From Escherichia coli (GTDB lineage Bacteria > Pseudomonadota > Gammaproteobacteria > Enterobacterales > Enterobacteriaceae): 64,000 nt of DNA. The stretch is taken from assembly GCF_003334305.1 (NCBI RefSeq), contig NZ_QOWS01000008.1; one strand, 5' to 3'. The notes below the pieces were generated by a model. The model worked only from the letters and a program-made list of their open reading frames with translations, was not told the DNA's origin and did no database searches. Of the stretch, positions 43,808 to 46,813 are shown piece by piece. The stretch's first letter is position 1. Each line of letters starts with the position of its first letter. The translations under genes and the position numbers were made by a program.

Positions 43808-45148
43808 TTAACTCAACAGCTGGAACGCAATCATCCCAACGATGGCACCGACAGTGCCGAGGATGGTTTCCATCATGGTCCAGGTTTTCAGCGTTTCGGC
43901 TTCGGTCGCGCCGGTAAATTTACCGAACAACCAGAAACCGGCGTCGTTAACGTGGCTGACAACAATCGAACCACCAGCGATACAAATCGACAGCGCCGCC
44001 ATTTGCGCACCGGAGTAGTTCAGTTGTTCAATAACCGGCATCACCAGTCCTACCGCCGTTAAACAGGCTACGGTGGCAGAACCCTGAATGATGCGCACTG
44101 CAGCGGCCAGCACGAAGCAGGTGATGGCTATCGGCAGGCCCATGCCAGTTAACGCTTCGCCCAGTGCCGGACCTACGCCAGAGTCAACCAGCACCTGTTT
44201 GAACACGCCACCTGCACCAATCACCAGCAGAATGATCCCCGCCGGTTGCAGCGCGTGACCGCAAATCTCCATCACTTTGTCTTTTGGCATGCCCTGACGC
44301 ATTGCCAGGCCATAAATCGCTACCAGACAAGCAACCAGAATCGCGGTAAACGGATGACCAATAAACTCGAACCATTCGTAAGCGGTAGAGCCTTCTGGCA
44401 CAAAACGCGCGGCAATGGTTTTCAGCCCCACCAGCACCAGCGGCAACAGGATCAGCGACAGGCTGAATCCGAAAGATGGCATTTTGCCTTCGCCGAGATG
44501 CGGTTCGCTGATGTCGTCAGGAATATGCAACTCCACGTAGCGGCTGATGAAATTACCCCACAGCGGCCCGGCAATAATCATTCCCGGAATTGCCGCACAC
44601 AGGCCAATCAGGATCATCCAGCCAAAATCGGCGTTCATCTGCGATGCCAGCAGCATTGGCGCTGGCCCTGGCACCAGGAACGCCGCCGCTGCCGCCACGC
44701 CTGCGAATAATGGGATTACCAGCTTCACCAGGTTCGTACCGGTGTGGCGCGCCATTGAGAAAGCAACGCTAATCAGCAGAACAATCGCCACTTCAAAGAA
44801 CAGCGGTAGCGCACAGACCAGCCCCGCAAGGCCGATGGCATAATGCGCGCGGCTGTGACCGAAGGATTTAAGCATTTTGACGGCAATCTGATCGACTGCG
44901 CCGGTTTCATGTAAGATCTTGCCAAACATAGCTCCCAGGGCGACAACCACCGCCAGGAAGCCGAGGGTGCCTCCCATCCCTTTTTCCATCGTCGCTGCGA
45001 TTTTATCGAGCGGCATACCGGAAAAAAGGCCAGCCCCCATGGACACCACCATCAAAGCCAGGAAAGCGTGCATACGCGCCTTCATGACTAAAAACAGCAG
45101 CAGTAAAACAGACCCTACTGCTGTTAAAACAAGCGTTAATGTAGTCAC
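43808..45148 (-). CDS. gntU: Low-affinity gluconate transporter GntU (446 aa)
   Basis: 446-aa GntP-family permease MTTLTLVLTAVGSVLLLLFLVMKARMHAFL.... Starts 3 nt after the gntK stop. Confidence 0.93.
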   Translation of the reverse strand: MTTLTLVLTAVGSVLLLLFLVMKARMHAFLALMVVSMGAGLFSGMPLDKIAATMEKGMGGTLGFLAVVVALGAMFGKILHETGAVDQIAVKMLKSFGHSRAHYAIGLAGLVCALPLFFEVAIVLLISVAFSMARHTGTNLVKLVIPLFAGVAAAAAFLVPGPAPMLLASQMNADFGWMILIGLCAAIPGMIIAGPLWGNFISRYVELHIPDDISEPHLGEGKMPSFGFSLSLILLPLVLVGLKTIAARFVPEGSTAYEWFEFIGHPFTAILVACLVAIYGLAMRQGMPKDKVMEICGHALQPAGIILLVIGAGGVFKQVLVDSGVGPALGEALTGMGLPIAITCFVLAAAVRIIQGSATVACLTAVGLVMPVIEQLNYSGAQMAALSICIAGGSIVVSHVNDAGFWLFGKFTGATEAETLKTWTMMETILGTVGAIVGMIAFQLLS

Positions 45149-45151
45149 TAC

Positions 45152-45679
45152 TTATTTGCCTTTTTTAATAACCTCAATGGTGCTTGCCACAACACCTTCC
45201 AGCGGTTGATCGATATCCACCACCAGTACATCAGTTTCGTCCGCACCCGGCTCCTGCAGCGTTTCAAACTGCGTCACCAACATTTGGGTTTTAAAGAAAT
45301 GGCCTTTGCGCGCTTTCAGGCGGCTTTCAATCACGTCAAAATCGCCTTTCAGGTAGATGAAAGAGAGATTCGGATTACCTTCACGCAGCAAGTCGCGATA
45401 GTGTTTTTTCAATGCAGAACAGACGATCAGTGACACTTTATTAGTGCGCTGCATAGCAAACGCGGCGTCGTTCAGCGCCTGCAACCACGGTTTGCGATCG
45501 TCGTCATTCAGCGGTTCGCCAGACGCCATTTTTTCGATATTGCGCCGTGGATGGAGGAAATCGCCATCAAGAAACGCGGCATGAAGTTGATGCGCCACTT
45601 CACTGGCGACCGCAGATTTGCCGCTGCCCGATACGCCCATCAAGACGTAAATGTGGTGATCATGGTTAGTCGTGCTCAA
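45152..45679 (-). CDS. gntK: Gluconokinase GntK (175 aa) with apparent TTG start
   Basis: Product (M)STTNHDHHIYVLMGVSGSGKSAVASEVAH... (P-loop). There is no in-frame ATG upstream of the P-loop; candidate TTG starts are at 45679 and 45700. Confidence 0.85.
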   Translation of the reverse strand: MSTTNHDHHIYVLMGVSGSGKSAVASEVAHQLHAAFLDGDFLHPRRNIEKMASGEPLNDDDRKPWLQALNDAAFAMQRTNKVSLIVCSALKKHYRDLLREGNPNLSFIYLKGDFDVIESRLKARKGHFFKTQMLVTQFETLQEPGADETDVLVVDIDQPLEGVVASTIEVIKKGK

Positions 45680-45709
45680 AGTGGTGCCCCCACAATACAA
45701 GAATTAAAA

Positions 45710-45738
45710 ATGTTACGGGTAACTGTTATCGGTAACAT
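45710..45738 (-). promoter_or_regulatory. Candidate tandem GntR operators in the gntKU promoter
   Basis: ATGTTACGGGTAACTGTTATCGGTAACAT contains two overlapping ATGTTA-N4-TAACAT-like palindromes about 30-60 bp upstream of gntK. Confidence 0.5.
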
Positions 45739-45817
45739 TGTCCAGCCGGACAATATCAGAAGCAATATCCATCCGTGCCTTAAGTGTATAAGTGTGAGCT
45801 ACTTCAAATTTGTGGGC

Positions 45818-46813
45818 TTAAATAGATCCGCCCGGTGACAAGGTGAAACCTAAATCTAACATTTTCGGTGTCACAGATTCGCCACGAATACGCGCCAGCA
45901 GGCGTTCAGCGCCAATACTGCCCATCCGCTCACGCGGCGTCAGCACGCTCGCTAACCGCGGCTCCATCACCTGGCCAATGTCATGACCGTGGAAACCGGC
46001 AATCGCCATATCGTCAGGAACCTTCAATCCCAGACGCTGACATTCAAACGCCGCGCCGACCGCCAGGTCATCGTTGGTACAGAACACGCCATCCATCTGC
46101 GGATATTCCCGCCGCGCCTGGCGAATCAGTTCAATACCGGAAGAGTAAGAAGAAGATTGCTCAACCATCACGCTATACGGCACCAGACCTGCATCCAGCA
46201 TCGCCTGTTCGTATCCCTTCTGTTTGATGATAGTACGTTCGTCGAGACGCGCGCCGAGATAGGCAATGTGGCAATGCCCGCGAGCAATAATGGCGGTGGT
46301 CATCTGGCGTGCCGCTTCAAAGTTATCAAAACCGACGGCGATATCGAGGCACGGCGACTGGCTGTCCATGAGTTCCACCACCGGGATCCCCGCCACTTCA
46401 ATCATCTTTAAGGTGCGCGGCGTGTGGGTACGTTCGGTGAGGATCAGTCCGTCGATATTCCATGAGAGCATGGATTCGAGACGTTCTTGCTCCATTTCCG
46501 GTTTATAACCGTAGTGCGCCAGCATGGTCTGATAACCGTGCGCGTCGGTGACGCTTTCGATTCCGCGTAATACTTCCGCGAAAACCTGGTTGGTGAGAGA
46601 AGGTAACAGGACGCCAATCGCCCGGCTGGTAGCGTTAGAGAGGATATCGGGCGCACGATTGGGAATATAGCCCAGTTCATCAAGAGCGGCGGCAATCTTG
46701 CCGCGTAGAGCGACGGAAACCTGCTCCGGGTTGCGTAAAAAACGGCTGACCGTCATTTTGGTCACGCCTACACGGTCAGCCACATCCTGAAGTACGGGTC
46801 TTTTCTTTTTCAT
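45818..46813 (-). CDS. gntR: LacI-family gluconate repressor GntR (331 aa)
   Basis: 331-aa ORF MKKKRPVLQDVADRVGVTKMTVSRFLRNPEQVS... (HTH plus periplasmic-binding-fold core). Confidence 0.93.
   Translation of the reverse strand: MKKKRPVLQDVADRVGVTKMTVSRFLRNPEQVSVALRGKIAAALDELGYIPNRAPDILSNATSRAIGVLLPSLTNQVFAEVLRGIESVTDAHGYQTMLAHYGYKPEMEQERLESMLSWNIDGLILTERTHTPRTLKMIEVAGIPVVELMDSQSPCLDIAVGFDNFEAARQMTTAIIARGHCHIAYLGARLDERTIIKQKGYEQAMLDAGLVPYSVMVEQSSSYSSGIELIRQARREYPQMDGVFCTNDDLAVGAAFECQRLGLKVPDDMAIAGFHGHDIGQVMEPRLASVLTPRERMGSIGAERLLARIRGESVTPKMLDLGFTLSPGGSI

Follow-up and report, generated by a model that had tools for sequence, protein, structure and literature searches.

The closest described system is gntK of Escherichia coli K-12 (b3437, NP_417894.2; PDB 1KNQ), which matches the locus studied here in its TTG start, its 175-aa product and the gene order gntR-gntK-gntU. 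In 1996 Izu and colleagues reportedly obtained an N-terminal sequence from purified GntK that matched the gene, and in 1997 they are said to have described control of the gntKU promoter by GntR and cAMP-CRP as well as attenuation between the two genes. The thermosensitive K-12 paralogue idnK (gntV, b4268) belongs to the same GntK/IdnK family and shares the xILMGVSGSGK entry into the P-loop. It differs from gntK in having an ATG start behind a canonical CAGGAGA Shine-Dalgarno (SD) sequence, and its product has a shorter N-terminal tail: 9 residues precede the P-loop glycine in IdnK, 14 in GntK. A more distant parallel is infC, which encodes IF3 and whose autoregulation shows how a sub-optimal start codon can have a regulatory role: IF3 discriminates against non-AUG starts, so infC output depends on the IF3 level. 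The infC start, however, is an AUU, which is truly non-canonical, and the gene encodes the very factor that discriminates; the start of gntK is the canonical UUG, there is no sign of a connection between GntK and the initiation machinery, and no feedback loop is indicated. UUG starts occur in about 3% of E. coli genes, and reporter output of the canonical starts AUG, GUG and UUG spans 10–100% of that of AUG (bioRxiv 10.1101/063800). These genes are like gntK in that a near-cognate start is read by the initiator tRNA in an SD-dependent manner. Across the genome, UUG triplets are replaced by AUG or GUG more rapidly when they serve as starts than when they lie in non-coding DNA, and stronger SDs tend to compensate for sub-optimal starts (PMC5622118).

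The stretch of DNA analysed here (the window) is 64,000 nt long, and by its open reading frames (ORFs) and annotation its minus strand carries the E. coli gntR-gntK-gntU locus; all features below are on that strand. The repressor gene gntR (45818–46813), with an ATG start, is the upstream neighbour. It is followed by gntK, encoding thermoresistant gluconokinase (45152–45679; 528 nt, 175 codons plus a TAA stop). A first-pass annotation, made from the sequence alone, had placed gntU 3 nt past gntK, and this is what is found: the gntK stop TAA (45154–45152) is separated by 3 nt (gta) from the gntU GTG (45148–45146). The gntU gene (43808–45148), for the low-affinity gluconate transporter, has the same length as K-12 b4476. 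This is the context of the GntI operon, with gntR upstream and gntU directly downstream, and gntU was the next gene in all 81 sequences of the comparative set described below.

An 801-nt query around the gntK start matched 5,425 of 5,426 complete E. coli genomes, at loci annotated gntR, gntK and gntU. The gntK CDS is 528 nt both in strain H15, where it is 100% identical and called by PGAP, and in K-12 MG1655. The start region in the window equals that of MG1655, with a single intergenic difference in the 211 nt compared. That difference lies between gntR and gntK at window position 45775 (C on the minus strand, T in K-12 MG1655), so the window is not MG1655 itself; over the 801 nt it is 100% identical to H15, A7 and NCTC9088, among other strains.

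The maximal gntK ORF (45152–45700) encodes 182 aa. From its residue 8, its translation matches at 100% the 175-residue chain of PDB 1KNQ, which reads M-STTNHDHH, and five related entries likewise. The NCBIfam equivalog model for gluconokinase, NF008583, scored 373.6 bits (cut-off 265), its profile positions 1–174 aligning to residues 1–174 of the protein. The broader GntK/IdnK model TIGR01313 scored 241.7 against a cut-off of 113.75, its position 1 falling at residue 11. A P-loop of the form GxxxxGK[ST] follows a hydrophobic strand (HHIYVLM-GVSGSGKS, codons 8–22) and aligns with 1KNQ, 3T61 and 4EUN; the Walker A motif GVSGSGKS itself occupies codons 15–22 (45614–45637). From the 100% identity to the crystallised enzyme, we infer that the product is an ATP-dependent D-gluconate kinase.

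Upstream of gntK, two adjacent inverted repeats, ATGTTACCGATAACA / GTTACCCGTAACAT, span 45710–45738. We presume these to be the GntR operators of the gntKU promoter, from what is published on the gnt regulon. In most species the repeats are conserved, at a distance of 18–40 nt from gntK on its upstream side, and most of the 80 species compared also keep the block AATGTTACCGATAACAGTTACCCGTAACA ahead of the gene. The Klebsiella/Raoultella group (L025, L026, L029, L030, L033, L034, L040, L046, L047, L056 and L064) is an exception: the operator repeats are absent from the 60 nt upstream of gntK, where the sequence is unrelated. The same group has the strongest gntK SDs, UGGGAGGA, at -10.2 kcal/mol. 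A second oddity is a locus labelled Chryseobacterium sp. 18061 (L041), which has an enterobacterial gntK with 92% protein identity and a typical GntR operator block; that assembly is probably mislabelled or contaminated. A consensus promoter scan of the gntK strand gave no sigma-70 match.

The first-pass annotation proposed that gntK initiates not at an ATG but at a TTG at 45679–45677 preceding STTNHDHH, noted a second TTG at 45700, and suggested comparison with the curated K-12 annotation. Direct reading of the minus strand and the ORF list locate both TTGs, and every coordinate given in that annotation is correct. The first is followed by AGC ACG ACT AAC CAT GAT CAC CAC, encoding STTNHDHH; the second (45700–45698) is in frame, and no other start codon stands between it and the in-frame TAA (45706–45704) that closes the frame nine codons upstream of the 45679 TTG. 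The K-12 b3437 / NP_417894.2 CDS aligns so that it opens at the TTG equivalent to 45679, as the suggested comparison was to establish. The annotation, the orthologues and the SD all strongly support initiation there.

A scan of one genome per species yielded 80 Enterobacteriaceae loci with 90–99% protein identity, giving 81 sequences with the window included. In the alignment, the codon at the position of 45679 was TTG in 78 and ATG in 3; CTN and TTA, the other leucine codons, never occurred. The three ATG cases were Yokenella, Trabulsiella and Buttiauxella (L035, L051 and L073; start region near 1180–1203). Conserved leucine columns inside gntK served as an internal control: all 16 mix synonymous codons, usually with CTG dominant and TTG at 0–26%. 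Codons 2–13 keep their amino acids across the 81 sequences while third positions vary, and are therefore translated. Upstream of the TTG, both sequence and length diverge by indels, and the nearest in-frame stop lies anywhere from 7 to 40 codons away. No in-frame ATG, GTG or TTG is present between that stop and the gntK TTG in 36 of the 81.

Within E. coli, the exact 61-mer around the gntK start, with the first base of that codon at its centre, was present in 4,941 of 5,425 genomes. By exact match, the same 61-mer with A or G as that first base, representing an ATG or GTG variant, was found in none of the 5,425. In the other 484 genomes the 61-mer differs in some other way.

The TTG at 45679–45677 has an SD-like sequence, GGGGGC (45691–45686), 6 nt upstream, with an anti-SD pairing energy of -8.4 kcal/mol. 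This energy falls in the top 1.2% among the 2,030 TTG triplets of the window. With the codon being only TTG or ATG in all 81 sequences, this makes the TTG more than a chance triplet. A purine-rich G block at -12 to -8 is kept in 81 of 81, and every orthologue shows anti-SD pairing, at -5.6 to -11.7 kcal/mol and 4–7 nt spacing. The three ATG-start species have SDs of -5.8 to -6.5 kcal/mol, among the weaker ones, compared with -8.4 in the window and its closest relatives, TTG species ranging from -5.6 to -11.7. A weaker SD accompanying an ATG is the direction of start-codon/SD compensation, though three cases are too few for statistics.

The initiation region is also unusually open. Its 86 nt (45640–45725) fold at -8.1 kcal/mol, compared with -14.0 ± 2.7 for dinucleotide shuffles (z = +2.19), and it is less structured than 199 of 200 of these; such openness fits compensation for a weak start codon. 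The possibility of a conserved regulatory RNA structure at the gntK start was rejected, because the region folds worse than its shuffles. A small GUGG/CCAC hairpin near the start was likewise dropped as a conserved element, not being kept in other species. An Rfam search of 44900–46000, with E values up to 1, gave no match and thus no Rfam leader.

Taking annotation, comparative and SD evidence together, we put at roughly 95% the probability that gntK translation begins at UUG 45679–45677 and gives a 175-residue protein. The codon behaves as a genuine UUG start would: across orthologues it stays within the start codons and never drifts to a synonymous Leu codon, its SD is conserved, and the sequences offer no better in-frame alternative. 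The 30S subunit would be positioned by the G-rich GGGGGC (45691–45686) 6 nt upstream, in a poorly structured region. The initiator tRNA would then take UUG as a near-cognate start, so that the first residue would be Met rather than Leu, giving fMet-STTNHDHH. Relative to AUG, the UUG would be expected to lower GntK output.

Some other sources bear less directly on the N-terminus. The 1KNQ chain is recombinant and follows the annotation, and hence is not independent evidence. We found no gntK entry in the INRI-seq or TRAINSPOTTER supplements, nor in the text of the Ribo-RET preprint; its absence from these initiation-site and N-terminome resources may come from repression of the operon without gluconate. 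Full-text searches on the gntK TTG, its N-terminus and 'thermoresistant gluconokinase', in literature other than the primary reports (Tong 1996, Izu 1996/1997), yielded no statement about the start codon. A tblastn search of plasmids for distant homologues gave alignments that did not include the gntK N-terminus and so are silent on start codons. The TTG start is correct, ordinary and already known, as K-12 RefSeq, PGAP, the NCBIfam model and the crystal structure all use it.

The second cistron also lacks an ATG. The gntU start codon, GTG in the window, where it opens a 446-codon ORF, was GTG in 62 of the 81 sequences, TTG in 19 and ATG in none, and its SD is weak (-3.2 kcal/mol). Across the set, the gntKU operon is without any ATG start in 78 of 81. 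The stop of gntK overlaps the start of gntU by 4 nt in 22 sequences and by 1 nt in 27, and the two lie 3 nt apart in 26. As we read these junction sequences, a silent change would suffice to give gntU an ATG whatever the type of junction (GTGA to ATGA, TAGTG to TAATG, or within the free 3-nt gap). With its own GTG 3 nt past gntK and a weak SD, gntU is probably translated by coupling to gntK.

The 76-nt gntK-gntU junction (45085–45160) is significantly structured, with a predicted fold of -22.2 kcal/mol (z = -2.46), a stability reached by 4 of 200 shuffles, and the gntU GTG sits in one stem of it. After that stem, within the first 20 codons of gntU, comes an 11-bp terminator-like hairpin (45123–45098) with a U-run. 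We take this hairpin to be, probably, the published gntK/gntU attenuator. The gntU frame stops early, after 80 or 109 codons, in three loci (L008, L011 and L032, downstream of about 1720), from Citrobacter amalonaticus AUH_CA_2023_1, Salmonella enterica subsp. arizonae CCUG 6322T and Enterobacter sp. EA-1. They reflect either sequencing errors that shift the frame or gntU pseudogenes.

Granted initiation at 45679, the TTG could owe its persistence to more than history. It has been kept in 78 of 81 gntK sequences, whereas UUG-start genes at large tend to become AUG or GUG (PMC5622118). One explanation is that a weak start is actively maintained by selection, through a low set level of GntK and, via coupling, of GntU, or through sensitivity to IF3. 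We regard this as possible, if on balance unlikely. Counting changes by Fitch parsimony on a neighbour-joining tree, we found that the first base of the start codon had gone from T to A only twice independently, compared with a mean of 6.4 transversions at the 4-fold sites of gntK, or 6.9 at those of gntK and gntU together. Of the 18 majority-T 4-fold sites, a single one had two or fewer transversions. However, 18–21% of all 4-fold sites are also that low, so this test of selection is not decisive. In its favour too, retention of the TTG runs against the genome-wide trend of UUG loss (PMC5622118); gntU never has ATG despite about seven G/T switches at its first base; and the paralogue idnK does use ATG, with AGGAG. 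Against it, a good SD and an open structure look like compensation towards higher rather than lower output.

A further difficulty is that the neighbours of the TTG are equally frozen, so that constraint may act on the context and not on the weakness of the start. C at -2 (window 45680–45681) and G at -10 are invariant in 81 of 81. In codon 2, AGC (45674–45676), the third base is C in 80 of 81, even though AGT is synonymous. The flanking bases thus appear to be under a nucleotide-level constraint that the protein sequence does not explain. These sequence comparisons no more than hint at selection for the TTG itself. The first-pass annotation had suggested low translational efficiency and a possible regulatory role; specific regulation of gntK through its start codon is unsupported, and no sequence feature at the start points to a feedback loop.

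A wider form of the selection argument takes in both cistrons. Here the whole gntKU operon would be kept ATG-free by selection, and its weak starts, stop/start coupling and intragenic terminator-like hairpin would together cap or fix the kinase-to-transporter ratio, or else tie gluconate catabolism to initiation-factor status. We hold this to be more doubtful still than selection on the gntK start.

Much less probable than either is initiation at the upstream TTG (45700–45698), which would give a 182-residue protein beginning MYCGGTTLSTTNHDHH. In its favour, no start codon of the maximal ORF precedes it, the A/T-rich sequence around it could serve as a binding site for ribosomal protein S1, and Escherichia species and some Citrobacter keep a TTG at this offset. 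Yet it has no SD pairing at all, and a start codon seven codons upstream of the gntK TTG is present in only 15 of 81 sequences; other species have theirs at an offset of 5, 6 or 9, if they have one. The indels in this region are not multiples of three, and the seven extra residues show no conservation at the protein level. The curated annotations and the NF008583 profile begin at the downstream TTG (45679), not at 45700.

The first-pass annotation erred in stating that no in-frame ATG precedes the P-loop: one is present at 45640–45638 (Met14), adjoining the first glycine of GVSGSGKS. Initiation there, which would give a 162-residue protein (MGVSGSGKS...) without the peptide STTNHDHHIYVL, is the least credible reading of all: although its codon is an ATG, invariant in 81 of 81 sequences, and would be the choice of an ATG-restricted gene finder, it has no SD, residues 2–13 upstream of it are conserved as protein with synonymous changes and hence are translated, and starting at it would delete the conserved strand HH(I/V)YVL that leads into the P-loop, a loss expected from P-loop kinase architecture to destroy the fold. 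Both the TIGR01313 profile, which starts at residue 11, and the solved homologues 3T61 and 4EUN, which have 20–28 residues before the equivalent Met and align from upstream of it, place Met14 inside the protein. The idnK comparison adds to this case, since in the K-12 IdnK product MAGESFILMGVSGSGK the equivalent methionine is internal (MAGESFILMG). Anti-SD pairing was found upstream of neither the 45700 TTG nor the 45640 ATG. On sequence alone, initiation at either may still occur as a minor event beside that at the UUG 45679–45677.

For annotation, the impact of the UUG start at 45679 is small, as curated records already use it, although a gene finder that accepts only ATG would wrongly start gntK at Met14. 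Those who re-engineer the gluconate operon would be dealing with two cistrons that both have non-ATG starts and are probably coupled. The question that weak starts raise for gntKU is one of degree, not of a new mechanism. For the family, retention of the gntK TTG together with avoidance of ATG at gntU offers a small, clean test case for weak starts as selected setters of expression.
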